Notes: generated by a model not told the origin, from the letters alone. Shown: positions 5,216-29,450, counted from the stretch's first letter. The stretch: 38,762 bases of DNA from Planctomycetota bacterium (GCA_012517265.1 JAAYVJ010000109.1:1-38762); one strand, 5' to 3'. Made by a program: numbers and translations.

Positions 5216-5218
5216 CTC

Positions 5219-6250: not shown

Positions 6251-7104
6251 CAGCGGCGATCCAGGTCAATCAGGTGTCCTTCCGTTACAGCCCGCAAAGG
6301 CAGGTCCTCAGCGGCATTGACCTGAGCGTCCGCGCCGGGACCTTTCTGGCAGTGGTTGGGCCGAACGGCGTGGGCAAGAGCACACTCATTCAGGTCATGG
6401 CGGGGATGCTCAAACCCCGGTCCGGCTCGGTGCTCCTGGAGGGCAAGGACCTGCGTTCGTACGGCGTGCGCGAGCTGGCCAGGAAGGTCGCCCTGGTTCG
6501 TCAGGAGTTCGTTCCGGCCTTCGGCTTTTCGGTCTACGAGACGGTCCTGATGGCCAGAACGCCCTGCTACGGGCAATGGGGCTTCGAGAGCCGGGAGGAC
6601 CGCGAGCAGGTCGCCAAGGCCCTCGAACGAACCGACACCGCCAGGTTCGCCTCCCGAGCCCTGGGCAGCCTCAGCGCGGGCGAGCGACAGCGGGTCTTCA
6701 TCGCCAGGGCCCTGGCGCAGAACACGCCCATCCTCCTTCTGGACGAGCCCACGTCCTTCCTCGATCTCAAGCACCAGGTGGCCATTTACGACCTCCTGAA
6801 GTCGATCCAGCAAGAGACAGCCGCGACCATCATCGCGGTGACCCACGACATCAACCTGGCCTCGCAGTACTGTGACGAAGCCTTGCTGCTCTATCCGGTC
6901 GCCGGAGAGGTCGCCCCCTCGGAGCCCGCTCCTCACCCCACCCGTCACCGCGTCGGTCCGACCCGTGAAATCCTGACCCCCGAAGCAATCCAAAGTGCGT
7001 TCGGCGTCGCCATTTTCTCCGGCGTCATCGGCAAGGAACGTTTTGTCGTTCCTCTGGGCTCCCACGCCAAGGACGCCAACATTCCACGGTCGTCAGACGT
7101 ATAA
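6247..7104 (+). CDS. ABC transporter ATP-binding protein (FecE/BtuD type)
   Basis: The ATG at 6247 overlaps the permease stop (ATGA). Walker A GPNGVGKST, signature LSAGERQR, Walker B ILLLDEPTSFLD and an H-loop VTHD are present. The first 354 codons of track ORF 5185-7104 are an out-of-frame shadow of the permease gene. Confidence 0.9.
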   Translation: MTAAIQVNQVSFRYSPQRQVLSGIDLSVRAGTFLAVVGPNGVGKSTLIQVMAGMLKPRSGSVLLEGKDLRSYGVRELARKVALVRQEFVPAFGFSVYETVLMARTPCYGQWGFESREDREQVAKALERTDTARFASRALGSLSAGERQRVFIARALAQNTPILLLDEPTSFLDLKHQVAIYDLLKSIQQETAATIIAVTHDINLASQYCDEALLLYPVAGEVAPSEPAPHPTRHRVGPTREILTPEAIQSAFGVAIFSGVIGKERFVVPLGSHAKDANIPRSSDV

Positions 7105-13596: not shown

Positions 13597-14550
13597 CTAC
13601 GGAGCGTCCGGACGGATGTGAAAATAGGCAACTCCCCCCCGCCGTTCCGAGATGACGGCCCCGGTCTGCTGCAGCCGGGAAACGTACTTGACAGCCTCGT
13701 TTCGGGCGATTCCAAGGCCGCAACAGATGTCCTCGATGGTGCAGGGCCGGCGTTTCAGCACGGAAACGATGTCCGCCTCGGTCCGCATCTCGTGGCGGTC
13801 GGCCGGCCCGGACGGGGCCTCCCCGATCACTTCGCAGACCCCTCCGATTTGTTGTGCGATCCGGTCGAGAACCTCACGCGGAACCGCCACAACATCCGGC
13901 TCGGCCGGGGGGCGGACCGCGGTGTTCAGATGGACCTTGTCGGGCCGGATCCGCTCGATCAACCCCTTGATCCGCTCAACCTGCTCGGCGCCGGTGTTCA
14001 CGCCGGCGATCAGGAACACCTCCAGCCAGATCTGTCCGGAGTACTCCTTGCGGAACTGTTCCATTCCCCAGACCAGTTTTTCGATGGTGATGTCGCGATT
14101 CGGACGGTTCACCGCCTCGAACGTGGCGGCGTCGCCCGCGTCCAGCGACGGGGCAACCACGTCGGCCTTCGCGCATTCGGCCCGCACATCCGCGCGATAG
14201 AGCAGCGTGCCGTTGGTCAGAATCGCCACCGGGATGTCCGTGAGTCGGCGGATCCCGTCGATCAGGTCACCCAGACGGGAGTTGAGCGTCGGCTCGCCCG
14301 AACCGCCCAAGGTGATGAAGTCCGCCTTCAGGCCGGCTTCGATCTTGCCTCGGATCTCGGCCAGGACCGCGTCGATGTCCACGAAGTCCGCCCGCTCCAC
14401 GCTGCTGCGGGTCGTGCGGCCGAGCTGACAATAGACGCAGTCGAGAGTGCAAATCTTGGGCGGCACGATGTCCACGCCCAGACTCATGCCCAGCCTGCGA
14501 GAAGGAACCGGGCCGTAGGTGAACGACGTTTGTTGTTCTTTCTCAGCCAT
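13597..14550 (-). CDS. radical SAM protein with a C-terminal winged-helix-like domain
   Basis: The CX3CX2C cluster motif is CTLDCVYC, within GPVPSRRLGMSLGVDIVPPKICTLDCVYCQLG. A GGSGEPTL glycine-rich SAM motif is present, and the C-terminal roughly 70 aa are helix-turn-helix-like. The start overlaps the kdsA stop by 8 nt. Confidence 0.85.
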   Translation of the reverse strand: MAEKEQQTSFTYGPVPSRRLGMSLGVDIVPPKICTLDCVYCQLGRTTRSSVERADFVDIDAVLAEIRGKIEAGLKADFITLGGSGEPTLNSRLGDLIDGIRRLTDIPVAILTNGTLLYRADVRAECAKADVVAPSLDAGDAATFEAVNRPNRDITIEKLVWGMEQFRKEYSGQIWLEVFLIAGVNTGAEQVERIKGLIERIRPDKVHLNTAVRPPAEPDVVAVPREVLDRIAQQIGGVCEVIGEAPSGPADRHEMRTEADIVSVLKRRPCTIEDICCGLGIARNEAVKYVSRLQQTGAVISERRGGVAYFHIRPDAP

Positions 14551-15385
14551 GGACGATCTCGAAAATGCCCTTGCAGGCGATAACCAGGTCTTCCAGCCAA
14601 TCCAGCGGTATCATGGTCGCCGCGTCGGATAGCCCCTTTTCCGGCTCGGGATGGACCTCCAGGAACAGGCCGTTGACGCCCGCGGCGACCGCCGCCTTCG
14701 CCAGCAGAGGCGCCATCTCGCGACGCCCGCCGCTGGACGAGCCCAGACCACCGGGCTGCTGCGTGCTGTGCGTCGCGTCGAACACCACGGGGCACCCGAA
14801 CTGCTGCATGATCGGGATGCCGGTCATGTCGTTGACCAAGCGGTTGTAGCCGAAGAAGGTCCCCCGCTCGGTCAGAATCACTTTGTCGTTCTTGCACGAA
14901 CGGATCTTGTCGGCGACGTTGCCCATCTCGCTGGGGGAAACGAACTGCCCCTTCTTGACACTGATCGGCCTGCCGGTTTCGGCGCAGGCGACCAGCAGAT
15001 CGGTCTGGCGACACAGAAACGCCGGGATCTGGAGGCAGTCGACCGTCGCGCCGGCCTCGGCCGCCTGGGCCGGCTCGTGGATGTCCGTCATCACAGGCAG
15101 TCCGCTTTCGGCCCGGACCTTCGCCAGAATCCGCATGCCTTCGGTCAGACCCGGGCCGCGGAAGCTCGAATGACTGCTGCGGTTGGCCTTGTCGAAACTG
15201 GCCTTGAACACGATCGGCACACCCGTCCGTTCAGAGATCTGCACCAACCGCGAGGCGATGTCGAGACACAAACGCTCGCTCTCGATCACGCACGGCCCGG
15301 CCATCAGAAAAAGCGGCGCCCCAAGCCCCACCTCCACGTTGCCGATCTGGAAACTCGTCCCTGTCGCCATACCTATTGCTGCCAT
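14543..15385 (-). CDS. kdsA: 3-deoxy-8-phosphooctulonate (KDO-8-P) synthase
   Basis: 280 aa. Contains FKASFDKANRSS, LQIPAFLCRQTDLL, SVKKGQF and VVFDATHS, which are typical KdsA motifs. Confidence 0.95.
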   Translation of the reverse strand: MAAIGMATGTSFQIGNVEVGLGAPLFLMAGPCVIESERLCLDIASRLVQISERTGVPIVFKASFDKANRSSHSSFRGPGLTEGMRILAKVRAESGLPVMTDIHEPAQAAEAGATVDCLQIPAFLCRQTDLLVACAETGRPISVKKGQFVSPSEMGNVADKIRSCKNDKVILTERGTFFGYNRLVNDMTGIPIMQQFGCPVVFDATHSTQQPGGLGSSSGGRREMAPLLAKAAVAAGVNGLFLEVHPEPEKGLSDAATMIPLDWLEDLVIACKGIFEIVHG

Positions 15386-15515: not shown

Positions 15516-16073
15516 TCACAAGTAGATTTCGCGTTGTTTCATCCCCAACTCAGTCAGCCGCTCGCCGATCATGCAGGCGTAGCTGGCCATGATGTGCGGC
15601 GAGCCGGACAATCCGAGCATCGCCTGCACGCGCCAGATCGCGCCCGAGTCCGGCCCTTCGATCTCCACGAACACCCCCACAAGCGGAAGTTCGTCCAGCG
15701 CCACCTCGCAGCCCTGCAACTGCCAGAGACGGCGTCTCTTGTTGAACGCCAGGGCCTTGGCATAGCCGAGCGAGCCCAGGAGCAGGTCCATCGCCTCGGA
15801 GTCACTGACCTCGGTCTCGAGCTCGACGCGTCTTTTGTAGTCGTCCTGCTCCTTCGGGCCTTTGTACGTCAGGATGGACCGGTCCCGCCCGTCTTTTCTG
15901 TCGGACCGCAGACGCAGGGCCTTGTCGGCATGGGTCAGGTCCCGGCCGGGGGTGTCGTAGTAGCGATCCGTCTGGATCGTCTCGCGCAGAAACGATGCGC
16001 CGCACCGGACGAGACTCTCCTCGACCGGCGCCAGCGAATCGACCTTGAGCTTGGCTTCGATCTCCAAATGCAT
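15516..16073 (-). CDS. CYTH-domain protein (class IV adenylate cyclase / triphosphatase family)
   Basis: 185 aa. The N-terminal LEIEAKLKV carries the ExExK CYTH signature, and the fold pattern is CyaB-like (RLRSD..., LTYKGP..., EVALDELPLVGVFVEIE). Confidence 0.85.
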   Translation of the reverse strand: MHLEIEAKLKVDSLAPVEESLVRCGASFLRETIQTDRYYDTPGRDLTHADKALRLRSDRKDGRDRSILTYKGPKEQDDYKRRVELETEVSDSEAMDLLLGSLGYAKALAFNKRRRLWQLQGCEVALDELPLVGVFVEIEGPDSGAIWRVQAMLGLSGSPHIMASYACMIGERLTELGMKQREIYL

Positions 16074-16080
16074 AGGACCG

Positions 16081-18735
16081 TCACACCACGACGTTCACCA
16101 GCCTGCCTTTGACCACGAGCACTTTCTTGGGCGTCTTGCCTCCCAGCGCGGCGACGACCTTCTCGCCGGCCAGCGCGACCGCCTTGACCGTCTCGTCGTC
16201 GGCCTCCGCGGCCACCACGATGCGGTCCTTCACCTTGCCGTTGACCTGAACCGCCAGTTCGAGCTGCTTCTCGCGAGCCAGCTCTTCGTCGTACTGCGGC
16301 CACGGCTCATACGCCAGACTGCGGTCGTGCCCGAGCCGCTGCCACAACTCTTCCGCGATGTGCGGCGAGAAGGGCGCCAGGATCAGGACGAACGACTCGA
16401 CCACGGACCTGGGCCGAACTTCCTTGCGGGCCAAGTGGTTCACGAAGATCATCATCGCGCTGATGGCGGTGTTGAATCCGAACGACTCGACGTCGCCGCC
16501 GACCTTGCGAATGGTCTGGTGCAGCAGACGCAGCGTCTCTGCGTCCGCCTGGGCGTCGCGAACGGCCGGGTCGAGCTCGCCCGTCTCTTCGTTCACGACC
16601 ATTCGCCAGACCTTCTGGAGAAATCGGTACACGCCCTGAACGCCCTGCATGCTCCACGGCTTCATCGCCTCCAGCGGCCCCATGAACATCTCGTACAGCC
16701 GCATGGAGTCGGCGCCGTACTCGGCGATCACAGCGTCGGGGTTCACCACGTTGCCGCGGGACTTGCTCATCTTCTGGCCGTCCTCGCCGAGGATCATGCC
16801 CTGGTTGATGAGCCGGGTGAACGGCTCGGCCGTCGTGACATAGCCTCGGTCGTACAGGAACTTGTGCCAGAATCGCGAGTAGAGCAGGTGCAGCACCGCG
16901 TGCTCGGCCCCGCCGATGTAGAGATCCACCGGCATCCAGGACCGCTCCTTGACGGGGTCCCAGCCCTGCCGCGGGTTCTTCGGATCGATGTAGCGCAGGT
17001 AGTACCAGCAACTGCCGGCCCATTGCGGCATCGTGTTCGTCTCCCGCCGGGCCGGACCGCCGCAGCAGGGGCAGGTCGCCTGGACCCAGTCGGTCGCTTT
17101 CGCCAGAGGCGGCTCGCCGCTCACCGGGGGCGTGTAGTCGGTCACCTCCGGCAACGTCAGCGGCAACGCCGACTCCGGCAGCGATACAACCCCGCACGTC
17201 GGGCAGTGCACGACCGGGATGGGCTCGCCCCAGTACCGCTGCCGGCTGAACAGCCAATCGCGCAGCTTGAAGTTGATCGCCTTGTTGCCCAGGCCTTTCT
17301 CGGCAAGCCACGCCGTGATCCTGCTCTTGGCCTCGGGCGTAGGCAGCCCGGTGATCGAGACCTCCGGCCCGGTGGAGTTCACCGAGACCCCGTCTCCCAC
17401 GAAGCCATGCCAGTCGGTCGCCGCGTCGGGCGGCTGAACCACCTGAATCACCGGCAGGCTGAACTTCCGGGCGAATTCGAAGTCGCGCGTGTCGTGGGCC
17501 GGCACCGCCATGATCGCGCCGGTGCCGTAGCTGGCCAGGACGTAGTCCGCGATCCAGATGGGGATCTTGTCCCGATTGACCGGGTTGATCGCGCAGTTGC
17601 CGGTGAAGACACCGGTCTTCTCTTTGTCGAGCGAGGTGCGCTCCAATTCGCTCTTGCGGGCGGCCTCGGCCCGGTAGGCCTGCACCGCGTCGCGCTGCTG
17701 CGACGTCGTGATGCTCTCGACCAGCGGATGCTCGGGCGAAAGCACCATGTACGTGGCGCCGAAGAGCGTGTCCGGCCGGGTCGTGAACACGCGGAGCTTC
17801 CGCCCCGCCGCCGGACCCTCGGCGATCTCGAAGTCCACCTCCGCCCCTTCGCTTCGACCGATCCAGTTGCGCTGCATCTCCTTGATCGACTCGGACCACG
17901 TGACGAGCTTGAGGTCTTCCAGCAGCCGGTCGGCGTAGGCCGTGATCCGGAGCAGCCACTGCCGCATCGGCCGACGGACCACGTTCTCATGTCCCTTGCG
18001 GTCGCATTTGCCGTCCTTGACCTCTTCGTTGGCGAGCACCGCCTTGCAGCCCTCGCACCACCAGACGGGAACCCAGTTCTCATAGGCCAGGCGCAGATCC
18101 GACACGGTCTTGCGGACGAAGGCCTGCCGCTGCTGCGGGTCGCCGCCGGCCGCCTGCGCCGCCTTGTGCCACGACGTCAGAAACGCGCTGCTTTCCCATT
18201 CGTTCCTGCGCCGCGGCTTTTCCTCCAGCGCGTCTTCGAGGAGTGAAATGTCCGCCGCTTTGCCCCACGAGGGATCGTAGTAGCTGTTGAACAGCTTCAG
18301 GAAGATCCACTGGGTCCACTTGTAATAAGCCGGGTCGGTGGTGTCCACCTCGCGGTCCCAGTCGTAGGAGAAGCCCAGCATCTTGATCTGGCGGCGAAAC
18401 GTGTTGATGTTCTTTCCGGTCGTGATCGACGGATGCGTCCCGGTGTCGATCGCGTACTGCTCGGCGGGCAGGCCGAAGGCGTCCCAGCCCATGGGGTGCA
18501 GCACGTTGAACCCCTTCATCCGCTTGTAGCGCGCGACGATGTCGCTGGCGGTATAGCCCTCGGGATGTCCCACGTGCAGACCCTGGCCGCTCGGATAAGG
18601 GAACATGTCCAGAACGTAGTACTTCGGCCGGGAGCCGTCGTAGTCGGGGACCTTGAACGTTTTGTTCTGGTCCCAATACGCCTGCCATTTCCGCTCGATC
18701 GAACCGAAATCGTAAGTGCCCTGCTTTCCACTCAT
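16081..18735 (-). CDS. leuS: leucine--tRNA ligase
   Basis: 884 aa. The HIGH-type motif is [12 protein letters not shown] and the KMSKS motif is QKMSKSRGN. Length and editing-domain layout are typical of bacterial LeuRS. Confidence 0.97.
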
Positions 18736-18951
18736 CGCTGTCGGAAACCTCTTTCAAAACCCGTCGCGCCGCGTTCGTCCGCAGCGCGTGATGCGATCCC
18801 GTGTCCGGTTCGCCGGACCATCCGGGGGCCATCCAGTCCCCGCACGCCGAGCCCGCCCGACGGCGAAGACCGTAGCTGCACAAAGACGGATACTATACTC
18901 GATCCACGTTCGCCCGTGTAGGGAAAGTTGCGGCCCGCGCCCGGGAAATGC

Positions 18952-18994
18952 CGATGGCGGCGTCGAGACCGAAAAGGTCCTGACGCCGCCATCG
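18952..18994 (-). terminator. strong GC hairpin downstream of the LTD-protein gene (possible operon terminator, no clear U-tract)
   Basis: CGATGGCGGCGTC (18952-18964) pairs perfectly with GACGCCGCCATCG (18982-18994), giving 13 bp. A second 9-10 bp hairpin lies at 19015-19038. Only a short TTT follows on the minus strand. Confidence 0.35.
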
Positions 18995-19054
18995 CGATAT
19001 CCGGTCGAACCATGGTCGAATCGGAGGATCGATTCGACTCGTTCCAAACGCAGG

Positions 19055-20110
19055 TTAGAGCGAGAAGCCGAAGAAGCTCGTCATCGCCGAGGCCATGGGG
19101 CTGCTGACGATCGTGAAAGGCTTGTCGCTCACGTCGTACACCGCCGGACGCGTCTTGCTCGACACCCGCACCAGAGCCTGGGGAGCGTCCACGAGCGGGA
19201 CGAGCCACTTGTAGCTGCCGGTGTTGCCCACGTTGGCCGGGTAAGTCTCGGTCCACGAATGGCCGTTGTCGATGGAGAACTCCACGCGGACGGGCTCGGT
19301 CACGCTGGTGCTCTCCCACTTGACGTCCACGATGTCGCCCATCGCGAAGGCCTCGTCGCCGTTGGGCGCCAGCACCTTGAGAGAGGCTCCGGCGGCCGGG
19401 GTGACGACGGATCGCAGCTTGCCGAGGCCCTGGCTCGCCCACCGGTTCGGCGCGCCGAACGTGCTGAAGTCGGCGCCGTCGTCGTAATCGGTGGAAGCGG
19501 CGGTGATGGTGGCGTCCGGATCGGCTTCCAGGCGGAAGATTTCGGTGCCGCTGACGCCGCTGACGGGGCTGATCCCTTCACCGGCGGGCCCGAAGACGAT
19601 CTGGCCGGCCTTGTCGCGAATCCGCAACTGCCAGTTGGTGGCGCTGACCGGGAACGACGATTTCTCGATGTACAGGCCGTCGCCGTTGTTGTTGGCCTGC
19701 ACGTTGATCCACCAGTCTCCGGCGGCGGGATTGTAGCTGACGTCGCTGGGCACGTCCTCGGAGACCGTGATGATCGTTCCGGCCCGCAGGTCCTGCCAGA
19801 TCGGGTTGGCGGTCAGAACGAGCGTTTCGTCGAGGATCTTGTTCTCATAAATGTCCAGTTGCCAGCCGCGGATGTCGAGGTGGTCCTTGATGACGACCAG
19901 TTCGAACCAGTCGCCGCCGTTGCCGCGGACCCGGCCGAAGTAGCTGTCGGAGGCCCGGCCCCCGTCGTCGTCGGCCGAGGCGTTTCCGCCGTTGAGGAAG
20001 TCGTTGCTGTCGACGGCGTTGTACTCGTTCAGAATGATGTCCGCAGCCCGCCCGTTCACCGACAGCAGGGCCAATACGGCCAGGACGCTTGCGATCCTGT
20101 TGATGCTCAT
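19055..20110 (-). CDS. secreted protein with an N-terminal lamin-tail-domain (LTD)-like module
   Basis: The signal peptide is MSINRIASVLAVLALLSVNGRAA. It is followed by ILNEYNAV...GGDWFELVVIKDHLDIRGWQL, an LTD-like pattern. A C-terminal beta-sandwich-like segment contains FSIDNGHSWTETYPANVGNTGSYKWLVP. Confidence 0.7.
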   Translation of the reverse strand: MSINRIASVLAVLALLSVNGRAADIILNEYNAVDSNDFLNGGNASADDDGGRASDSYFGRVRGNGGDWFELVVIKDHLDIRGWQLDIYENKILDETLVLTANPIWQDLRAGTIITVSEDVPSDVSYNPAAGDWWINVQANNNGDGLYIEKSSFPVSATNWQLRIRDKAGQIVFGPAGEGISPVSGVSGTEIFRLEADPDATITAASTDYDDGADFSTFGAPNRWASQGLGKLRSVVTPAAGASLKVLAPNGDEAFAMGDIVDVKWESTSVTEPVRVEFSIDNGHSWTETYPANVGNTGSYKWLVPLVDAPQALVRVSSKTRPAVYDVSDKPFTIVSSPMASAMTSFFGFSL

Positions 20111-20207: not shown

Positions 20208-21848
20208 CTACCGCCCCGATGGGGCCGGAGCCTGCGTTGCGGATGTCATCCGGGCCACCGGCATCGACAACGACCCGACTTCCCACATCCCGTCCGGACG
20301 AACCTGCATGACGTCCGTATCGCGGTAGAAATTCAGCGTCGCGATCACGTAGTCGGTCAAAGCGTCGGCCATCTCATTCTGGGCGTCGTGCAAATGCTGC
20401 AGGCCGTCCAAAACCCGCCGGCTGCTGACCCGGCCGTACTCCATCAGCAGATAGTTCTTCCCGATGCGTTCCCGGGCCAGCTTGAGCCCTTTGTCCAGGA
20501 TCACATACCGCTCCGCGGTTTCCGTCAGCTTGCGGTAGGCATCGCGGATCTCCAGTCGGATGGTGTCGGCCATCTGATCGTAGTCCCGCTGCCTCTGATT
20601 GAGAACCGTCAATGCGTTGCGGTAGGCGACCTGCTCCGGAACGCGGTCCAAAGGCAGATCGACCGAAGGGCCCGCCGTGACGGCGCCCTGACCGTGGGAG
20701 TTGATGTCCACGGTGCCCGCCACGTTCAGCCCGGTCCTCAGACCGTCGGCCGCCACGTGGACGCCGCGCTGCGCGTCGAGGACCATATCGGCCTGATTGA
20801 CCAGATCCAGGCGGCGCGAAAGCCCCGTCTCGATGGCCTCGCTGACCACGAAATCTGGCTGAGGGATGCCGCCCTTGAGAAGAGCTTCAAACACCCCGCG
20901 ATCCAGTTCGAACTCGCTGGTGGGCGGCACGCCAAGCGTGATCTTGAACGCGTCGAGGAACCGTTCGTGCTCCTTCTGGGCCAGAACCCAGCGATCGCGG
21001 GCGCGAAGCCGTTCCTGCTCGATCCGGTCCAGCTCCTCGGACTCCAGCCTCGCGGCCCCGACGAGCTTCTCGACGCGGTCCCGAAGCGCCGTCAGGGACG
21101 TGTAGTACTCCTCGGTGTTGGCGGCCAGTTCCCTCTGTTCGAGGACCTCGTAGTACTGCGTGATCACCGAGACGACGAACGTCTTGCGGAAGCGGTTGAA
21201 GGACCGGATCTGGTACAAGGTGTTGCGTTTGGCCTGGGTCAGGGGTTCCAGGACCGCCATCCGGTCGCTGCCCCGCAACAGAGGCTGACTGACCGAAGCC
21301 CCGAACACGGAGGCGAAACCGTGGTCGCCCTGGCCGAGCAGGACGTCCACCCATTGGATGCCGACGCGCGTGCTGATCAGGGCGCCCGAGGCCAGAAGCC
21401 GATTGAAGCCGACGTTGGCCTCCGCCTGCAGGGCCTCGTCGGTCCCGTCGTTGGAATACAGGAGGCCCCCCCCGCCGAACAACTGCGTTTCATAGCCGTG
21501 ACGGACGAGTCGCTGATTCAGGGCGGTCGTGAAGAGAAGTTCCTTCTGGCTCTGGTATTCGCGATTGTTGGCCGTGGCGATGGCGACCGCGCGGGGAAGA
21601 GTCAATACGCCGGGGACCGGCGCGTACCGGTCGATCGTCAGATCGTTCGGCGACGCAGGAACGTCGCCGACCCGGTAGTTGGCCTTGTAACCGAACGAGG
21701 GATCCCACTGGGAATCGATGATCTCATAGGCCTGCTCATCGGCGTCAACCTTGTAGTTGCGCTGCGAGCAGCCGGCCGCCAGGGCCGCCAAAACCACAGA
21801 CATCGCCAGCAGTGCAGTACCTCTCATCGCGTTCATCACCCCAACCAT
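20208..21848 (-). CDS. TolC-family outer membrane channel lipoprotein
   Basis: The signal peptide and lipobox are MRGTALLAMSVVLAALAAGC. The two-fold repeated alpha/beta OMF architecture shows typical segments (LTLPRAVAIATANNREYQ..., LDLVNQADMVLDAQRGVHVA..., NYLLMEYGRVSSRRVLD). Candidate starts are at 21848, 21836 and 21827. The track start at 21965 would overlap the HlyD gene. Confidence 0.8.
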   Translation of the reverse strand: MVGVMNAMRGTALLAMSVVLAALAAGCSQRNYKVDADEQAYEIIDSQWDPSFGYKANYRVGDVPASPNDLTIDRYAPVPGVLTLPRAVAIATANNREYQSQKELLFTTALNQRLVRHGYETQLFGGGGLLYSNDGTDEALQAEANVGFNRLLASGALISTRVGIQWVDVLLGQGDHGFASVFGASVSQPLLRGSDRMAVLEPLTQAKRNTLYQIRSFNRFRKTFVVSVITQYYEVLEQRELAANTEEYYTSLTALRDRVEKLVGAARLESEELDRIEQERLRARDRWVLAQKEHERFLDAFKITLGVPPTSEFELDRGVFEALLKGGIPQPDFVVSEAIETGLSRRLDLVNQADMVLDAQRGVHVAADGLRTGLNVAGTVDINSHGQGAVTAGPSVDLPLDRVPEQVAYRNALTVLNQRQRDYDQMADTIRLEIRDAYRKLTETAERYVILDKGLKLARERIGKNYLLMEYGRVSSRRVLDGLQHLHDAQNEMADALTDYVIATLNFYRDTDVMQVRPDGMWEVGSLSMPVARMTSATQAPAPSGR

Positions 21849-21859
21849 GAATGGACCGG

Positions 21860-23089
21860 TCACAGCCCGCGGATGCCGACGAGCTCGCCCGGAATGATGG
21901 CCAGCCCCGCAGGGACTTCGATCACCACCGGCCTGCCCCACTGGGGGATGGTCGGACTGCGCCATAGCCTCTGCGGCATCAGCTCGATCGTCGGCCCGAT
22001 GGACAGCACATGGGACTGGGCAATCTGGGCCGGGTACCGCATCTTCACAAGCTCGACGTTCATGTCCTGCTCCAGGAGCCCGATCTGCTGCTCGTTGGCG
22101 TAGGCGATGATCTCGGTCGGCTCGGTCTGGGCCACGGCCAGAATCGGATCGCCCGCAGCAACCACTTCACCTGCCCGTCGGATCGTCTCCTCGCCCTGCC
22201 TCTTGAGCAACGCTTCGTTGGCCTTTCCCGAAATCGGGATCACGACCCCGTCGATCGGGGACTTGATCTCGACGGCCATGCGGGCCTTGAGCGCCGCGAT
22301 CTGCTCCTGCAACCCTTTGATCAGCTCCTCCTGCACCCTCGCCTCTTTGCGAATGGCCTCCAGAGCGTCATCGACGGAGGTCTGCGGCAACGTCTGGCGT
22401 TCGAATTCCTCCCGCCGGAGTTCCGCCTGGGTCTGGGCTTCCTTGGCCTGCTCGAGCTGCTCCTGGCACTCGTGGATCTTCTTGGCCGTGCTCTCGTAAT
22501 CGATCTTGAGCTTCTCCAGCTCAAAGGCCACGACGACCTTCTCTTCGACCAGCTTTTCGGTGGCTCGGATCTGAACAGCCAGACTGTTCAGCAGGATCTC
22601 GGCATCGGCGATCTCCGTCTGCACTTTCAACACGTTCAGGCGGGCGGCCTCGGCGTCCACGGCGAACCGACGCTGGTTGTCCGCGTGGTTGATTTGGAGA
22701 TCCGCGGCGTTGGCAAGCAGCTCTTCCTGCGTCGGGATCAGCGACGCCATCAGTCGGTCGATCTCGGCTGCGGCGGTCGCGATCTGGCTCTTGAGCTCCG
22801 TCTCGGTCATCCATTCGTCGGCCGGAACGGTGTTGAGGATGGCCAGCGTCTGGCCCGCCTTGACGGGCTGAAACAGCTCGACCGGAATGTCGGTGATGCG
22901 CGCAACGCAGTCGGACGCGATCTGACGAACCTCGCTCTGGGCGATGCCGACGATCTGGAAACTCTCCGACCGCTGGTAGAACAGCCAGCCCACGGCCGCC
23001 ACAGCGCCCAGCCACACGATCATCGGCACCACATGACGCAGGTAGGAGCGTTTGACCATGTAATCCTTTTTCGCTTGCTTCTCTTTCAT
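21860..23089 (-). CDS. HlyD-family periplasmic adaptor (membrane fusion protein)
   Basis: 409 aa. It has an N-terminal TM anchor (VVPMIVWLGAVAAVGWLF), a lipoyl-like half (PVKAGQTLAILN ... SPIDGVV), a roughly 190-aa coiled-coil hairpin and a C-terminal beta-barrel. Confidence 0.85.
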   Translation of the reverse strand: MKEKQAKKDYMVKRSYLRHVVPMIVWLGAVAAVGWLFYQRSESFQIVGIAQSEVRQIASDCVARITDIPVELFQPVKAGQTLAILNTVPADEWMTETELKSQIATAAAEIDRLMASLIPTQEELLANAADLQINHADNQRRFAVDAEAARLNVLKVQTEIADAEILLNSLAVQIRATEKLVEEKVVVAFELEKLKIDYESTAKKIHECQEQLEQAKEAQTQAELRREEFERQTLPQTSVDDALEAIRKEARVQEELIKGLQEQIAALKARMAVEIKSPIDGVVIPISGKANEALLKRQGEETIRRAGEVVAAGDPILAVAQTEPTEIIAYANEQQIGLLEQDMNVELVKMRYPAQIAQSHVLSIGPTIELMPQRLWRSPTIPQWGRPVVIEVPAGLAIIPGELVGIRGL

Positions 23090-23105
23090 AGATGGTCGCC
23101 GTCGC

Positions 23106-23801
23106 TCAGACCTCGAGCAGCTTCTCCTGCATCGTCAGACTGATATTTTCCATCCCGTCCACCTTCTCCAGCTCCGAGATGAACTCCTCGTTCTTGGCGG
23201 TGTTCTTCACCATGATCTGGTAGGCGTATTCCGCCGGTCCGCCGAACCCGCTGTCCTGCGAGGAAATCAACGTGAAATTCCCGCAGAACCGCCGCAAGAT
23301 GCCGGGCACCGGATGGTCGGTCCCGATCGGACCCCGCAGGCTGAACCGCAGGAAGCCATTGTGCGGCTCATGGGAGCCGAAGTCCGTGAAGTACAGATAG
23401 ATCGCAATCAGGCCGAGGACCACCGTGCCCAGAATGGCCGTCAGGTAGCGGTGCGAGCCGCACGCCATTCCGATCACCAGCGACGCGAAGATGAACACGA
23501 TGTCCCGCGTGTCCTTGAGCACGTTGCGGAAACGAACGATCGCCAGCGCGCCCATCAACCCGACCGCGGTGATGATGTTGTTGCCGATGACCGTCATCAC
23601 CATCGCGATGACCACGCAGATCAGGATCAGCGACTGCACATAGGTGCGGGAATAGGACAGCCCGCTGTGCGTGATGTAATACACCCAGGCGATCGCCTGC
23701 CCGAGGACGAACGCCAGCAGCAGCGCCAACAGGACCGCTTGCGGGCCAAACGACGTGCCGCCCAACGGCGTCTCCTCGATCAACTGCCACCATCTATCCA
23801 T
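23106..23801 (-). CDS. DUF4956-family integral membrane protein
   Basis: 231 aa with about 4 TM helices. It contains GALAIVRFRNVLKDTRDIVFIFASLVIGMACG, the conserved RFR...D.RD motif remembered for DUF4956, plus a soluble C-terminal domain. The start overlaps the VTC gene stop by 8 nt. Confidence 0.75.
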   Translation of the reverse strand: MDRWWQLIEETPLGGTSFGPQAVLLALLLAFVLGQAIAWVYYITHSGLSYSRTYVQSLILICVVIAMVMTVIGNNIITAVGLMGALAIVRFRNVLKDTRDIVFIFASLVIGMACGSHRYLTAILGTVVLGLIAIYLYFTDFGSHEPHNGFLRFSLRGPIGTDHPVPGILRRFCGNFTLISSQDSGFGGPAEYAYQIMVKNTAKNEEFISELEKVDGMENISLTMQEKLLEV

Positions 23802-24729
23802 TCCACACGCTCCTCATGGCCGGTCCGCAGAACCCCAGCCGGCTCGACTGCTCCATCGACGTGGCGAACTTCGAGATCGAACGGGCATCCAGATTGAAGA
23901 ACCGCACCAGGCGGCTGAGCCACTCGGGATACACGCCTGTGAACTTGATCTCCAGAATCGCGTAGCCTTCCGTCAAGTCGTTGCGCTGCCAGCCGGTGCC
24001 GCCTAGGCGAACAGTCGGCTCGGCGCTCACTTTATAGCACAGCTCCCGGTCAAACGTTATCCTGACCCGGTTCTCCGACGTGCTCTCGTATGCCTCTCTC
24101 ATGTACCGGATCAGGATCATCGGACCGGCTTGGACCGACGCGACGTAGAGCTGAAACTGGTTCAGCGCCTTTTCGTCGGTCGTATACCCCTGAGGAGGCA
24201 GCAACCTGCCCTGCAACAGGGTGGCGACATCCTGGTCCATGACCCGGGCCCGGCTCTTCATGATCACGCGGTTGATCCGCCGCTTGATCTCGAAGAACCG
24301 CGGGTACTCCGGCTCGTCGGTATAACTGCGGATCCGCAGCTTGAACCGGTTCTTTTGCCCCTGCTGGCTCTCCCGGCACAACTGCAAATCCTGCGAATCC
24401 AGATACAAACTGACAATCGGGTACATCCCTCCCCGTTGCAGCTTCGAATACTTGTCGTACTCGAGAAACGGGCGGATGTAGCTGGTGATCCTCGCAGCCT
24501 CGATCTCCGTCACGAGATATTTCATCTCGTATCGGCAGGCAAGCATGCCGTCGACGGCGGTCTTTTTCACCTGGGCAGGACGCGGCTTCTGTCCCGCCTT
24601 CGGGTCGGCCCCCGCGGCGGCAGCCGGCGCCACCGGTTGCCTGAGGGGAACCGTTCCCTGCCGCACGGAACCAGTCCGCGCGGTAAGGTCCGATACTCCC
24701 GGCCCTGTGTCAATCCTGCTGCTATCCAC
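23794..24729 (-). CDS. VTC-domain protein (polyphosphate polymerase-like, CYTH/TTM tunnel fold)
   Basis: The core begins at CRYEMKYLV (ExK-type tunnel motif) and includes YPIVSLYLDSQDL, KNRFKLRIRSY, FFEIKRR, RITFDREL and ILEIKF. The GTG at 24729 has a GAAGGAAA SD and adds a Pro/Ala-rich 60-aa N-terminal tail. An ATG at 24546 is the alternative start. Confidence 0.8.
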   Translation of the reverse strand: MDSSRIDTGPGVSDLTARTGSVRQGTVPLRQPVAPAAAAGADPKAGQKPRPAQVKKTAVDGMLACRYEMKYLVTEIEAARITSYIRPFLEYDKYSKLQRGGMYPIVSLYLDSQDLQLCRESQQGQKNRFKLRIRSYTDEPEYPRFFEIKRRINRVIMKSRARVMDQDVATLLQGRLLPPQGYTTDEKALNQFQLYVASVQAGPMILIRYMREAYESTSENRVRITFDRELCYKVSAEPTVRLGGTGWQRNDLTEGYAILEIKFTGVYPEWLSRLVRFFNLDARSISKFATSMEQSSRLGFCGPAMRSVWNG

Positions 24730-24851
24730 CTTGCTACATTTCCTTCTGCAAAACCTCGGAAGGGAGACCCCCCTCCGCAGGCTGGTGTTTCCGCCGACAC
24801 CCTCTTCCGCACTGGCGGGCGGGGTTCGGCTACAACCCCAGTCCCTTGTCT

Positions 24852-24881
24852 ATTTTAACACAACTGCGGGTTTCCAGTCAA
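24852..24881 (-). promoter_or_regulatory. sigma70-type promoter for the VTC-DUF4956-HlyD-TolC operon
   Basis: The minus strand reads TTGACT (24881-24876), an 18-nt spacer, then TAAAAT (24857-24852). It lies in the 225-nt gap between the CotH stop and the VTC start. Confidence 0.5.
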
Positions 24882-24954
24882 GCAGTCTATTAGATCTGCG
24901 TTAGGGAAACCTGTCCTCACCAGGACCGCCAGGAGAACGCTCCCGTGGGCTGGG

Positions 24955-27081
24955 TCAATTCACCCCGGTCCCGAGCGGTTCGGCGTTGGCCGCCAGCGGG
25001 GTCGGGACCGACGACACCTCCATGAAACCCGTTCCGTCCGGATACCGGGCACAGGACTGATCGCCCGCCAGGCGGTCGATCGTGACCGAGTCCAGGAGGA
25101 CGTGCCCGTTCGCGAGCGTGTCGAACAGCCAGATCGTCTCCCCTTGGGCCGAGAGCCTGAAGTTGGCGTGCAGCCCCGGCTCGTCTTGCCCGTCCTCATC
25201 GGCCCAGACCAGGAGGTACTGCCCCGGTCCCAGCACAGTCCCCTCGGGGAACTCCCACTTGAGCGGCTTGTCCGGACTGTCGCTCAGGTACATGCCGGCC
25301 AGGTCGACCGCCTGATCGCCGATGTTCTTCAGTTCGATCCAGTCGTCGTACTCGCCCTGGGGATCCACGATCACGGCCACGTTCTTGGCCATGACTTCGT
25401 TGATGACGATCCTGGAGAAGGCCGCGTGAGGATAGGTCACCAGATGGCTGTATACCTCGTGCTGGGCCCCTTGGGGGCTGTAGGCGACCGTCCCGGCCGA
25501 ATCGGCCGACGCGGCCTCGACGTAATACCGAAGCACCGTCCCCGGCGGGTAGTCGCCCAACGCCAGGGAGTAGACACGCTGCGAAACCCCGTCCAGGGTC
25601 TGCACGCCCTGATCGACCATGGGCTCAGGCGAGAACAAGGCGAACGGCCCCGGCGCGACGTACAACTGGACCCCGGAGACCGCCACGGCGGTTCCGAGCC
25701 GGGCGGTGACGAGTACGCTCTGCCCGGTCTTCGTCTCGGTCACTTCCTGATCGACCGAGTAGATGACCGGAGACTGCCGGTTGACCTCGGCGTTGGCCAG
25801 GAGCGACGCCCGGCGATTCTGGACGAAGCTCTTGAGAGCTGTCACGCCCGAGTCGAACGCCTGCGTCGTGTACAGCTTCTTCGTGTCGGCCTTGACCTCC
25901 GCCTCGATCAAGGCCCGGTAGGCGTCGATCCTGGCGTTGAGCAGGTCCGGCGTGAAGTAGTCGTTCAGGATCGTTCGGACGTGGGCGAGATACCGTTGGC
26001 GGTACTTCGGAATCGCCATCAGTCGGTACATGATCGGCACCGCCGAGTCGTCGGCCCTGTAGAAGATGGACCAGTTGGCCGTACTCATGGACTCGTTGCC
26101 GTCATATTGCATCAGATGCATCTGGCCGGTCTCCGGCTCGTAGTAGAGGCCGTAGTCGCTGCCCCGCTTGTTGACGTAGCCGTCGTCGTCCTCGAAGATG
26201 ATCTCAAAGGCGCAGAGCCACAGGGCCCCATCGACGTCCAGCACGGATTCCACCTTGTCGGCCAACTGCGCCAGAGGCGTGTTGTTCAGGACGTCGCAGG
26301 TGTGGATCAGGCTCGTCCACGGGTCCGCCTGATGAGTGCTCTTGAGCTCATAGGCCGACTGGTAGGCGGCCACGTTCGTGCCCTGCCAGGTCAACGCCGC
26401 GACCCCTGCGGTCACGCCCCCGCCCCCTTCGGCCATGCCCACCTCGCCGGCCGACCGCCGGATGGGAGTCACGCCGCCCCCCCCGGGGGTGGCCCCGCCG
26501 CCGGTGTTGCCCCCGCCCATGGCTCCCATCCCGTCGCCTCGCCATTGCGTGCCCTTGTTGCTCGGGAACCAGTCATTGAGGAACTGGGCGTTGAGCTGCT
26601 GAACGTTGGCGTAGACGCCCCAGTTCTCGCCGTTGATCACGAGCCTGACGAAATTGGCCTTGGCGCTGGGAACCTGCCGGCGGCAGGTGTTCGAATAGAG
26701 CACCTCCCGCATGAACGTCGCGTCGTTGTTGCAGTTGAGCAGGTTGAGCGTCTTGTACCCCATCAGACGCTGATCCGGGAGAGTATAGTCGATGGAGATG
26801 TTGAATGACTTCTTCTGGGAGTTGGCCGTCATCTGATACGAGGTGTTGCCCCGGAAACGCACGCCGACCCCTTCATACACCACGCCGTCCACCGTCAGCG
26901 TGGCCGCGATGTCCGTCTTGCTCTGATAGTTGCTCGTCAGAAGGGCGTACCAGTTCGTCTGCGCGAACTTCAGTTCCAGGACGGGCATCACGCCTTCGTC
27001 ATACAGGTCAACCCCGCAGGCCTCGCAAGAGCCCCACAACACTGTCGCTGCAGACAGTACAACCAGCCACTTCGTCGTCAT
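24955..27081 (-). CDS. secreted CotH-family atypical kinase with a C-terminal lamin-tail domain
   Basis: The ATG at 27081 is preceded by GAGGAGG and starts MTTKWLVVLSAATVLWGS (signal peptide). CotH-like segments are KKSFNISIDY, YKTLNLLNCNNDATFMREVLY, FVRLVINGENWGVYANVQQLN and GSDYGLYYE. The C-terminal LTD pattern is INEVMAKN...DDWIELKNIG...DLAGMYLSD. Confidence 0.85.
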   Translation of the reverse strand: MTTKWLVVLSAATVLWGSCEACGVDLYDEGVMPVLELKFAQTNWYALLTSNYQSKTDIAATLTVDGVVYEGVGVRFRGNTSYQMTANSQKKSFNISIDYTLPDQRLMGYKTLNLLNCNNDATFMREVLYSNTCRRQVPSAKANFVRLVINGENWGVYANVQQLNAQFLNDWFPSNKGTQWRGDGMGAMGGGNTGGGATPGGGGVTPIRRSAGEVGMAEGGGGVTAGVAALTWQGTNVAAYQSAYELKSTHQADPWTSLIHTCDVLNNTPLAQLADKVESVLDVDGALWLCAFEIIFEDDDGYVNKRGSDYGLYYEPETGQMHLMQYDGNESMSTANWSIFYRADDSAVPIMYRLMAIPKYRQRYLAHVRTILNDYFTPDLLNARIDAYRALIEAEVKADTKKLYTTQAFDSGVTALKSFVQNRRASLLANAEVNRQSPVIYSVDQEVTETKTGQSVLVTARLGTAVAVSGVQLYVAPGPFALFSPEPMVDQGVQTLDGVSQRVYSLALGDYPPGTVLRYYVEAASADSAGTVAYSPQGAQHEVYSHLVTYPHAAFSRIVINEVMAKNVAVIVDPQGEYDDWIELKNIGDQAVDLAGMYLSDSPDKPLKWEFPEGTVLGPGQYLLVWADEDGQDEPGLHANFRLSAQGETIWLFDTLANGHVLLDSVTIDRLAGDQSCARYPDGTGFMEVSSVPTPLAANAEPLGTGVN

Positions 27082-27759: not shown

Positions 27760-29052
27760 TCAAGAGTTCAAGCGAGCCAGGAACTGCTCCAAATTCACGG
27801 TCTCCTGGGCGCCGCCAGCCATGTCCTTGACCACCACCTCCCGGTGGTCCTTGTACTCCTGGCCTATGATGACGCACTTGCGCGCATTCTGCCCGGCGGC
27901 CTCTTTGAGCTGCTTGGAGAGCCCGCCCTGCTTATAGCTGAAATTGGCCGATCGCCCCTGGGAGCGGATTCGAGCCGTAACCTCGTACATGGCGTCCGCG
28001 AACTGCGGGGCCGCCAGCGCGACGAAATAATCCAGGCCCCGCTTGGGCATCTGCGAGGCGAGCAGGCCCCGCTGCTCCAGCAGAATCTCCAGGACGCAGT
28101 CGCCCATGCCCATGCCGGTGGCCGCGATGGCCGGGCCCCCGAAATCGCGAAGCAGGTTGTCGTAGCGGCCGCCGCCGCAGATGGCACGCAGCTCGCCCGC
28201 GATGTCGTGCACCTCGAATACGATGCCTGTGTAATAAGCAAGACCCCGCACGATGCCGGGGTCGAAACCGCAGAACTCCGCCACGCCCATGGCCTTGAGA
28301 ACCGACAGAACGCTTCGAAGCTCGTCGAGCGCCTTGGTCAGAGCCTCGGTGGGCTGTGTGATCGCTGCAACGCCCTCCACCGACTCGAGGGCCATGAACT
28401 GGTGGATCTTCCCGGCCTGGTCCTTGTCCGGGACCTGCTCGGCCAGCAAGGCCTGGAACGTCTCCGGCGGCAGCTTGGCCTTCTTGTCCAGGACGGCATA
28501 GATGGGGTCCAGCCGCTCGGCGGGGATTCCGATGCTGGTCAGAACTGCCGCCAGAAGCCTTCGACTGGAGATCTTGGCGCGGACGTCCTTGCTGGTCAGG
28601 CCAACCGTCCTCAGGTAGTCGATCGTGGTGAAGATGATCTCGGCGTCGGCGTCGGCCCGGTCCTCCCCGATGATGTCGACGTTCCACTGGAAGAACTCGC
28701 GAAGGCGGCCCTTCTGGGGACGCTCCGCCCGGCACAGGCGGGGCACCGCGAACCACTTGATCGGCCGGGGAAGCGAGTGGATCTGCTGGTTGACCATGCG
28801 GGCCAGCGTCGGCGTGATCTCCGGCCGGATCGCCAGATCCCGCCCGCCGCGGTCCTGCAGGGAGAAGAGCTGCTCGACGATCTCCTGGCCGCTCTTGATC
28901 TGGTACATCTGGAGGTGCTCGAAGATCGGGCCGTCGTACTCCTCGAACCCGTTCCGCAGGGAGACCTTCTTCCAGCCGTCGATGATCCAGTTGCGCCGAG
29001 CCATTTGCTCCGGGTAGAAATCCCTCGTTCCTTTGACCGGCGGTATCTTCAT
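27760..29052 (-). CDS. hisS: histidine--tRNA ligase
   Basis: The internal ATG at 29052 gives MKIPPVKGTRDFYPEQM. Class II motifs are present, including FRYERPQKGRLREF-like (AERPQKGRLREFFQ) and GGGRYDNL, plus a C-terminal anticodon-binding domain. The upstream 124 codons of the track ORF are a shadow over the ykgJ-like gene. Confidence 0.95.
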   Translation of the reverse strand: MKIPPVKGTRDFYPEQMARRNWIIDGWKKVSLRNGFEEYDGPIFEHLQMYQIKSGQEIVEQLFSLQDRGGRDLAIRPEITPTLARMVNQQIHSLPRPIKWFAVPRLCRAERPQKGRLREFFQWNVDIIGEDRADADAEIIFTTIDYLRTVGLTSKDVRAKISSRRLLAAVLTSIGIPAERLDPIYAVLDKKAKLPPETFQALLAEQVPDKDQAGKIHQFMALESVEGVAAITQPTEALTKALDELRSVLSVLKAMGVAEFCGFDPGIVRGLAYYTGIVFEVHDIAGELRAICGGGRYDNLLRDFGGPAIAATGMGMGDCVLEILLEQRGLLASQMPKRGLDYFVALAAPQFADAMYEVTARIRSQGRSANFSYKQGGLSKQLKEAAGQNARKCVIIGQEYKDHREVVVKDMAGGAQETVNLEQFLARLNS

Positions 29053-29450
29053 GACTTGCGTCCCTTTGTATTGCGAATCTTCTCTTTCTCCGTGGCGTTG
29101 TTGTCGAACTTCACTCGGATATACTCCTCCATCTGCCTGTCGTCGGTGAAATGCAACTCGTAGTCGTAGTCGCCCTCGATGAAATCGCAGTCGGCGTGCT
29201 TGTACTTTCGGCAGATGGTCGGCCGGCGATCGTAGATGAGGCACTTGTGCGTCTTCTCCGACAGGTGGCGGCACTTGTTCTTGACGCTCAGGTACCAGTC
29301 GCCCTTCTCGACGAAGACGGAAATGTCCCGGTGGCACAGATACCATCGAATGTCGTCGTAGTCTTCCCGCGTCTCCGGCGTATCGAGCGGGAGCGCAAAA
29401 TACCGACAGCACATCCCTGTGCACCTATCACACTGGCTCTTCTGGGCCAT
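29049..29450 (-). CDS. YkgJ-family Cys-cluster (zinc/iron-chelating) protein
   Basis: 133 aa. Contains CDRCTGMCC near the N-terminus and CRHL...HKCLIYDRRPTICRKY, typical of the CxxCxxCC/YkgJ family. The stop overlaps the hisS ATG (ATGA). Confidence 0.8.
   Translation of the reverse strand: MAQKSQCDRCTGMCCRYFALPLDTPETREDYDDIRWYLCHRDISVFVEKGDWYLSVKNKCRHLSEKTHKCLIYDRRPTICRKYKHADCDFIEGDYDYELHFTDDRQMEEYIRVKFDNNATEKEKIRNTKGRKS

Follow-up and report, generated by a model that had tools for sequence, protein, structure and literature searches.

Analysis of a 38,762-nt stretch of DNA from a Planctomycetota bacterium (GCA_012517265.1 JAAYVJ010000109.1:1-38762; the full stretch is called the window below, and positions count from its first letter) showed the presence of a minus-strand gene cluster, in which the genes of a VTC-domain protein and of a DUF4956 membrane protein directly precede those of an HlyD-type membrane-fusion protein (MFP) and a TolC-family outer-membrane factor (OMF). 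The composition of the operon and the conservation of its gene order suggest an envelope-spanning export system, with DUF4956 as the inner-membrane component instead of a pump and a polyphosphate chain as the cargo; the probability of this mechanism as a whole is put at roughly 0.45. Judging from gene neighbourhoods, DUF4956 is quite probably the functional inner-membrane partner of the MFP/OMF pair, and the chances of VTC-made polyphosphate being the cargo here are slightly short of even. Linkage of DUF4956 to MFP/OMF genes was found in at least two distant double-membrane lineages and in well over 100 other genomes and metagenome contigs, and the survey yields a candidate new inner-membrane partner of TolC-type machinery and a candidate polyphosphate secretion pathway. 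The closest relatives of the window proteins belong to metagenome-assembled genomes of Phycisphaerae/Sedimentisphaerales (Planctomycetota), and the G+C content of the window is about 64%. The four genes of the proposed system are as follows.

23794 to 24729, minus strand: VTC-domain protein, putative polyphosphate polymerase (Pfam VTC; core from the ATG at 24546).
23106 to 23801, minus strand: DUF4956 membrane protein, proposed inner-membrane component (Pfam; AlphaFold2 (AF2) model).
21860 to 23089, minus strand: HlyD-type MFP, periplasmic adaptor (Pfam).
20208 to 21848, minus strand: TolC-family OMF, predicted lipoprotein (Pfam OEP; lipobox).

An MFP/OMF pair normally depends on an engine of the ABC, RND or MFS class. 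An earlier note on this DNA had stated that no such gene is present in the cluster, and none was found between the genes of HisRS (27760-29424) and LeuRS (16081-18735). Pfam searches likewise agree with its list of five co-directional minus-strand genes (CotH, VTC, DUF4956, HlyD-type and OEP), and the junction distances given there hold by coordinates: the VTC and DUF4956 genes overlap by 8 nt, the gap between the DUF4956 and MFP genes is 16 nt, and that between the MFP and OMF genes is 11 nt.

Conservation of this arrangement was surveyed in 80 Phycisphaerae loci, one genome per species, the DUF4956 proteins of which are 63-94% identical to the window protein. The loci were retrieved with a narrow DUF4956 alignment (A3), which returned Phycisphaerae relatives only, and were mapped by tblastn of the window proteins; the counts below are given over evaluable loci.

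VTC directly upstream of DUF4956: 77/77.
MFP directly downstream of DUF4956: 73/74.
OMF after MFP: 59/68.
Gene 6 (the gene that follows OMF in the window) after OMF: 24/51.
CotH homologue upstream: 15/38.

The gaps between the DUF4956 and MFP genes are mostly -14 to +14 nt, and adjacency is retained at MFP identities down to 32%. In nine loci the operon stops after MFP; here OMF is lost, the neighbours are different, and LeuRS is inverted or absent. Since the VTC-DUF4956-MFP trio persists in these nine loci without OMF and with changed flanks, it represents the stable core of the module. The trio is also retained in the distant relatives L087 and L088, the VTC and MFP proteins of which are 40-52% and 29-34% identical, respectively, to those of the window. 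No pump gene was found in or beside the module in the Phycisphaerae loci, where the mapped genes are mostly contiguous and leave no room for one. The sole exception to MFP adjacency is L079, in which the gene of a 762-aa signal-peptide protein (L079:11109-13397) is inserted between the DUF4956 and MFP genes.

Outside this clade, plasmid examples were obtained by tblastn of a plasmid collection with inspection of the annotation, and a profile search for distant DUF4956 proteins listed mostly planctomycete-like proteins. A metagenome scan gave 80 diverse, mostly Bacteroidota-like loci, with DUF4956 29-59% identical to a Bacteroidota-type seed; the taxonomy of these contigs was assigned solely from type IX secretion domains, which point to Bacteroidota. 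According to iterated profiles and maps of open reading frames (ORFs), MFP lies directly downstream of DUF4956 in 52 of the 66 evaluable metagenome loci, with a median gap of about 2 nt and common overlaps of 1 and 4 nt, and HlyD domains were detected by Pfam in 43/46 of these MFP neighbours. The gene after MFP encodes a protein of 390-500 aa with a signal peptide; 13/35 such proteins match Pfam OEP directly (best E=3.6e-24), and no family besides OEP recurs among the 35 tested against Pfam. All of them join an iterated profile seeded from the Hymenobacter TolC; this profile could drift on coiled coil, and weight is placed on the 13/35 direct matches, the uniform size and the signal peptides. 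The Phycisphaerae OMF model found only 3 of these divergent metagenome OMFs. No pump gene was found alongside the module in the approximately 125 MFP-linked loci examined.

A neighbour-joining tree of DUF4956 placed the MFP-linked members in two separate branches, with MFP-less, VTC-linked branches between them. In 11 of the 14 metagenome loci without MFP, VTC adjoins DUF4956. A plasmid of Chondrinema litorale (Bacteroidota) contains genes for DUF4956, an HlyD-family adaptor and a 416-aa protein and has no VTC, and in a plasmid of Hymenobacter volaticus the DUF4956 gene is followed by that of a TolC-family protein. Plasmids of the Gram-positive Planococcus and Pseudobutyrivibrio carry a VTC/DUF4956/CotH trio inside glycosyltransferase clusters, with no MFP annotated in these two inspected records. 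VTC was found in six records of the plasmid collection, all Gram-positive, and each copy adjoins a DUF4956 match by coordinates. These loci therefore present DUF4956 as a hub that pairs with VTC or with MFP/OMF, the window clade having both. Such a pattern is expected if DUF4956 exports something, because the MFP/OMF linkage occurs in double-membrane lineages and no MFP is annotated in the Gram-positive examples.

The earlier note had also considered that VTC/DUF4956 pairs in related genomes might be unlinked to MFP/OMF genes; linkage was found both in Phycisphaerae and in the distant Bacteroidota-like branch. Accordingly, the explanation that VTC/DUF4956 stand beside HlyD/TolC through incidental synteny inherited in one clade is hardly credible. 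It would account for the many Phycisphaerae clusters lying in a conserved block that runs into LeuRS and CYTH, with HisRS/HYExAFE upstream in some only. However, the linkage survives rearranged flanks (L040, L046, L055, L058 and L061), occurs in the distant L087 and L088 and in the separate Bacteroidota-like branch with different neighbours, and gaps of a few nucleotides are the rule; incidental synteny was rejected as contradicted by the neighbourhood survey.

The DUF4956 protein of the window consists of 231 aa and matches Pfam PF16316 with E=2e-12 (47.6 bits against a gathering cut-off of 30.6); 5394 relatives were found at E<=1e-3 among 50%-identity representatives. Its AF2 model (pLDDT 81.5) consists of five helices at residues 20-138, followed by a beta-alpha-beta-beta-alpha-beta domain at 147-225, and among the ACT domains that Foldseek matched to this latter part is 2lqj, the C-terminal domain of MgtC. 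The membrane part gives a weak match to MgtC/SapB (PF02308; 20.7 bits, under the gathering cut-off of 31.4). The predicted architecture of DUF4956 is MgtC-like, namely, a helical membrane part and an ACT-like domain. "Split VTC", the name used in the earlier note, is a misnomer, since DUF4956 has no detectable similarity to the membrane domain of yeast VTC and is MgtC-like instead. A 65-sequence DUF4956 profile did not match Vtc1, Vtc3 or Vtc4 even at E<=10 in a library of PDB sequences including those chains, and because no Vtc chain was found, the interpretation of DUF4956 as a detached piece of the yeast VTC complex was ruled out.

Residues R90, F91 and R92 are universal or nearly so in about 100 members of the DUF4956 family, and the positive-inside rule would place the basic loop 90-100 on the cytoplasmic side. 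All 63 MFP-linked proteins have Arg at position 99, which varies in MFP-less ones; at position 100, Asp is present in all 35 VTC-linked proteins, and Asn in 28/42 proteins from MFP-linked loci without visible VTC. These two residues, encoded at 23502-23507 on the minus strand of the window, may be partner-specific signatures of two functional subtypes, a comparison confounded by phylogeny.

Other neighbours of DUF4956 were also observed. On pSymA of Sinorhizobium meliloti (L091:6251-8621), the DUF4956 gene follows a gene for a caspase-domain (Peptidase_C14) protein, with no VTC, MFP or CotH nearby. In Bacteroides thetaiotaomicron, a DUF4956 gene is paired with a DUF2490 gene (BT3498-BT3499) among iron-responsive genes (PMC10434189); DUF2490 may be another type of outer-membrane partner.

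The MFP is built of a short basic N-terminus, one transmembrane (TM) helix, two lipoyl halves at about 56-86 and 303-370, and a beta-barrel. Pfam matches are HlyD_3 at residues 303-370 (E=5e-7, 30.8 bits against 22.2), HlyD_D23 at 212-369 and Biotin_lipoyl_2 at 56-86, and no PDB chain was found at E<=0.1. Approximately 200 mostly helical residues separate the lipoyl halves and, as read from the translation, are heptad-like and rich in Glu, Lys and Leu. There are 468 homologues; identities among the 120 listed range over 52-88%, and all taxon names given for them are planctomycete or Phycisphaerae. Membrane-anchored adaptors such as HlyD and EmrA suit partners with almost no periplasmic mass; by analogy, DUF4956, which would be such a partner, suits the TM-anchored MFP. 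The OMF matches Pfam OEP (PF02321) in two stretches with E=2.9e-17 (63.5 bits against 22) and carries the lipobox LAALAAGC, read from the translation. Long adaptors of 650-700 aa were observed in the sub-branch L110, L111, L112, L114, L115, L117, L141 and L142 (e.g. L117:8654-10738); in three of the four checked, the C-terminus is extended by a region that matches DUF6929, DUF6910 or SdiA-regulated-like (beta-propeller-like) profiles.

The VTC protein gives a nearly full-length match to Pfam PF09359 (E=8.4e-39; 133.9 bits, cut-off 23), covering positions 2-233 of the 235 in the profile. Its start is ambiguous, either GTG at 24729 or ATG at 24546, and the conserved core begins from the latter. 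The 61-codon extension from GTG 24729 is basic and rich in Pro and Ala, and remains an open frame in L007 and L008, the orthologous loci nearest to the window, where a 3-nt indel preserves the frame; this N-terminal extension may be a real, coding, disordered tail. In other loci, VTC lengths given by gene callers are 250-299 aa. A single-sequence search against PDB was marginal (E=0.25), and a profile of 15 orthologues was needed; with it, the catalytic domain of yeast Vtc4 was matched at E=1.2e-8 and the Vtc4 structures 3g3q, 5iiq and 8i6v at E=1e-8 to 2e-7.

According to a cryo-EM study, the essential residues of Vtc4 are K200, R264, R266, K281, R361, K458, S457, Y359 and E426, and K458 is replaced by Ile or Leu in the inactive Vtc2/3 (bioRxiv 10.1101/2023.01.27.525886). 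The earlier note had proposed to check the catalytic tunnel residues against Vtc4, and all six that can be aligned are conserved: K200, R264, R266, K281, Y359 and R361 correspond to K9, R71, R73, K88, Y148 and R150 of the window protein (numbered from ATG 24546), which are invariant in the 15 orthologues over an identity range of 38-92%. For the remaining positions, motif reading, not alignment, indicates that the invariant motif LEIKFT (E199) and S225-K226 (S-K-[FY]) are likely the equivalents of E426 and S457/K458. No activity was reported for any bacterial VTC-domain protein in the literature found.

Because the VTC enzyme is tightly coupled to the module, polyphosphate is the obvious cargo in the window, and four steps of export can be envisaged. 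A soluble Vtc4-like enzyme on the cytoplasmic side of a DUF4956 oligomer would use ATP to make polyphosphate; the 8-nt overlap would couple the translation of the two proteins, and the universally conserved RFR...R.D patch of DUF4956 and its ACT domain would face the enzyme. The growing chain would then be threaded through DUF4956, and polymerisation could push it outward, as in yeast VTC with its unrelated membrane domain. The TM-anchored HlyD-type adaptor and the TolC-type lipoprotein would take the chain across the periplasm and the outer membrane. At the surface, the separately secreted CotH kinase-LTD and gene-6 proteins would bind or use the exported material. The analysis itself establishes which genes are present, the invariance of the catalytic residues that align, the architecture of DUF4956 and its very strong linkage, across phyla, to MFP/OMF; how the components interact, whether they form a channel, what is carried, what powers transport and what the LTD/CotH proteins do are deduced from gene content and order. 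The fullest form of this scheme, a polymerase-driven secretion of polyphosphate with polymerisation, not an ABC ATPase or a proton-driven pump, as the energy source and with surface LTD/CotH proteins binding or using the polymer, is proposed only tentatively. If true, it would be a new kind of secretion system and a dedicated bacterial route to extracellular polyphosphate. Extracellular or surface polyphosphate has been reported for several bacteria, and literature searches found no export route for bacterial polyphosphate.

In the earlier note, VTC and DUF4956 together had been proposed as the inner-membrane engine of the MFP/OMF pair. Gene neighbourhoods strongly support the partnership of DUF4956, whereas VTC proved optional outside Phycisphaerae, and this is one of the points that weigh against polyphosphate export by the module. 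Among the 20 MFP-linked metagenome loci with at least 3 kb upstream and at least 6 kb downstream, VTC is present in 6 and not in view in 14, where many contigs are short and "no VTC" means none within about 8 kb, which can mean out of view; the sample was moreover picked by similarity to Bacteroidota DUF4956 and is no unbiased census. Further, the MFP lies under all NCBIfam subfamily cut-offs (RND_mfp, type_I_hlyD, EmrA and CzcB; 22-38 bits against 95-391), the OMF scores 25.7 bits against NCBIfam type_I_sec_TolC with its cut-off of 225, and the equivalents of Vtc4 E426 and S457/K458 are unaligned, since the profile alignment ends before them and a C-terminal sub-profile has no Vtc4 match. DUF4956 itself is small and has neither an ATPase nor a recognised transporter fold, Foldseek and the PDB profile search found no solved relative of its membrane part, and MgtC, the family nearest to it, is regarded as a regulator and not a transporter.

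Because 14 of the 20 well-flanked loci have no VTC, the module needs no adjacent polymerase and its cargo need not be polyphosphate. DUF4956-MFP-OMF may then be a real exporter with a general cargo other than VTC-made polyphosphate, VTC being a lineage-specific add-on that feeds or regulates the channel. Candidates for the cargo are an anionic phosphoryl compound needed by surface CotH/LTD proteins, such as a nucleotide or PPK-made polyphosphate, and also ions or other small molecules. This explanation, considered rather unlikely, agrees with the identity of the most constant neighbours, which are LTD (27/29) and CotH (13/29) and not VTC, with the ACT domain, which suggests control by a small ligand, and with the split of residue 100 between Asp and Asn, which hints at subtypes. 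However, that split is confounded by phylogeny, and VTC may sit elsewhere in the genomes of the VTC-less loci. In the window clade, moreover, VTC adjoins DUF4956 in every evaluable locus and overlaps it, and VTC joins the module in the other branch too, either upstream of DUF4956 in the order VTC-DUF4956-MFP (L129 and L137, as well as the shorter contigs L135, L143 and L154) or in the order DUF4956-MFP-OMF-VTC-CotH (L110, L117 and L142, as well as L115 and L138).

A role of DUF4956 as an MgtC-like regulator or scaffold, with the MFP/OMF pair energised by an unlinked transporter and the operon reflecting co-regulation or assembly, is judged improbable. The sub-threshold MgtC similarity, the MgtC-like architecture with an ACT domain and the lack of a recognisable transporter fold or energy-coupling module in DUF4956 are in line with such a role, as is the normal need of MFP/OMF pairs for a pump. 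Nevertheless, none of the approximately 125 MFP-linked loci contains a pump gene; the start/stop overlaps of the DUF4956 and MFP genes suggest stoichiometric co-production; and MFP stays with DUF4956 after the loss of OMF, which is the pattern of cognate inner-membrane partners. DUF4956 also has a role of its own, because it stays with VTC in the two Gram-positive records in which no MFP is annotated.

The preferred reading, export of polyphosphate through DUF4956, MFP and OMF, assigns the secreted proteins of the cluster to the receiving side. The CotH protein matches PF08757 over profile positions 1-322 of 322 (E=7.9e-46) and has a C-terminal LTD (E=2.4e-17); its N-terminus, MTTKWLVVLSAATVLWGSCEACG, read from the translation, is signal-peptide-like. 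CotH had been counted as a partner gene in the earlier note; it is a member of the neighbourhood and at the same time its least conserved one (15/38 Phycisphaerae loci and 13/29 elsewhere), and the constant extracellular companion is LTD instead. Among the flanking secreted proteins of the metagenome loci, LTD was found in 27/29, the type IX secretion system (T9SS) C-terminal domain in 19/29 and the CotH domain in 13/29. The LTD domain may serve as a receptor of the cargo at the surface; use of the exported polymer by CotH is speculative. No link between CotH and LTD was found in literature searches.

Gene 6 encodes a protein of 351 aa with a signal peptide, read from the translation, and has no Pfam or NCBIfam family. 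None of its 883 homologues is informatively named, and the few taxon names given are mostly of Phycisphaerae type. The AF2 model (pLDDT 69) consists of two beta-sandwich (Ig/Fn3-like) domains, for which Foldseek returned generic Ig/Fn3 folds only. The N-terminal motif IILNEYN...GDWFELV is weakly LTD-like: hhalign to the LTD profile gave a probability of 50% and E=1.6e-4 over 45 N-terminal columns only, Pfam LTD was not matched at E<=10, and a purpose-built LTD HMM found nothing.

The LTD/CotH and gene-6 proteins have their own secretion signals (Sec here, T9SS elsewhere), and are therefore more likely to bind or use the cargo than to be it. The reverse, a system that moves or anchors the neighbouring LTD/CotH proteins from the periplasm to the surface, as in two-step secretion of the MacAB type, is very improbable. 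LTD-bearing secreted proteins are indeed the most constant neighbours, and the CotH-LTD and gene-6 proteins with their Sec-type signals would otherwise stop in the periplasm. However, 19/29 of these proteins in the Bacteroidota-like loci carry their own T9SS C-terminal sorting domain; Gram-positives, which have no outer membrane, still keep DUF4956 and VTC beside CotH; and passage of a folded CotH-LTD protein with over 700 residues through a TolC-type channel would be unexpected. On the T9SS signals, the Gram-positive loci and the TolC size argument, secretion of the LTD/CotH proteins by the system was rejected. Among side observations on these companions, a small LTD protein is encoded upstream in L088, and in one lineage, L001 (4179-6993) and L002 (1245-4059), the place of CotH upstream of VTC is taken by genes for a Peptidase_C39+Rhodanese protein (760 aa) and a MauE-family protein.

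Comparison with known systems shows that the window system resembles both a tripartite exporter and the yeast VTC complex and is a member of neither, having no pump class and no VTC membrane domain. It shares with the yeast complex (Vtc4/Vtc3/Vtc1) the catalytic triphosphate-tunnel VTC domain with alignable substrate-binding residues, and the tight pairing of the polymerase gene with a membrane-protein gene fits synthesis coupled to transit. In contrast to the yeast complex, the window enzyme has no SPX domain or TM segment of its own, DUF4956 is unlike the VTC membrane domain, and the proposed window system adds a periplasmic adaptor and an outer-membrane channel. A TM-anchored HlyD-family adaptor with a long helical region, a TolC-family lipoprotein and a tight operon are common to the window system and to HlyBD-TolC, EmrAB-TolC and MacAB-TolC, but where those have an ABC, MFS or RND protein as third component, the window has a 231-aa protein of five helices plus an ACT domain. 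In capsule export by KpsMT-KpsE-KpsD, a long polyanion is likewise handled by a synthesis or translocation unit at the cytoplasmic face, an adaptor in the periplasm and a channel in the outer membrane; this system is ABC-powered and its cargo is a polysaccharide. The export logic is alike, but the protein families of the window are unrelated to the Kps families. DUF4956 shares with MgtC/SapB the helical membrane domain, the ACT-like C-terminal domain (2lqj) and a weak Pfam match, although it is a separate Pfam family with an MgtC score under the cut-off; to our knowledge, MgtC has no MFP/OMF or VTC-enzyme partner.

We know of no function for bacterial VTC-domain proteins, DUF4956 and the accompanying CotH genes, though they are common in gut, oral and environmental bacteria. 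In Gram-positive pel operons, CotH, 'polyphosphate polymerase' and DUF4956 (and DUF4832) genes were described as accessory genes with the function left open; one of the two preprints proposes cytoplasmic polyphosphate, CotH is predicted to be secreted, and an adaptor/TolC link is absent from both (bioRxiv 10.1101/768473, 10.1101/2024.04.20.589940). The CotH, VTC-type and DUF4956 families are co-located in the window as well, but the window cluster has no adjacent pel or glycosyltransferase genes and adds MFP, OMF and a sixth, secreted protein. Literature searches found neither a link of DUF4956 or the polyphosphate polymerase to HlyD/TolC nor a description of polyphosphate export by such a system.

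The remaining features of the cluster are the following.

24955 to 27081, minus strand: CotH with C-terminal LTD, secreted (Pfam); upstream of the candidate promoter, accessory and variably linked.
24852 to 24881, minus strand: candidate sigma-70-like promoter of the VTC-to-gene-6 unit (TTGACT-18-TAAAAT, extended -10 TG).
19055 to 20110, minus strand: gene 6, secreted two-beta-sandwich protein (no Pfam family; AF2).
18950 to 19040, minus strand: two strong stem-loops, probable end of the transcription unit (directly 3' of the gene-6 stop; terminator-like, without a U tract).

The five-gene operon of the earlier note stands as regards VTC, DUF4956, MFP and OMF, but a sixth gene had been overlooked and CotH lies upstream of the promoter-like site. 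That site was located as previously described: a consensus scan gave TTGACT-18-TAAAAT with an upstream TG at 24881-24852 on the minus strand, matching at 10/12 positions. Because two such sites were found in the entire 9-kb region against 1.4 expected, the promoter-like site carries little weight by itself. However, L007 and L008 have the element unchanged, although the sequence upstream of it diverges there. The stem-loops at 18950-19040 fold with a minimum free energy (MFE) of -61 kcal/mol (z=-5.5 against 200 shuffles) and are probably the end of the transcription unit. Since these strong hairpins directly follow the gene-6 stop, a transcription unit consisting of the promoter, VTC, DUF4956, MFP, OMF, gene 6 and the hairpins is likely. 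No Rfam family and no tRNA was detected when the window and the VTC leader were scanned.

HYExAFE and HisRS border the cluster on its upstream side, and LeuRS and a CYTH/CyaB-like gene on its downstream side. The nearest pump-like gene of the window is an ABC ATPase ORF at 5185-7104 on the plus strand (639 aa, E=7e-33), which lies 13 kb off on the opposite strand, with housekeeping genes between, and shows no sign of a link to the cluster. The window encodes a second triphosphate-tunnel enzyme, the CYTH/CyaB-like protein (15516-16073, minus strand; class IV adenylate cyclase model, E=4e-26), directly after LeuRS and about 3 kb from the VTC operon; since the LeuRS-CYTH pair is syntenic in most Phycisphaerae loci, it probably represents housekeeping synteny outside the system. 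The CYTH gene is followed by genes for a tyrosine recombinase (Phage_integrase, Xer-like), a radical SAM protein and DAHP synthase, at 11925-13010, 13597-14550 and 14543-15385 on the minus strand. The recombinase shows no sign of a mobile element and belongs to conserved chromosomal synteny, because the same gene order is found in distant orthologous loci.

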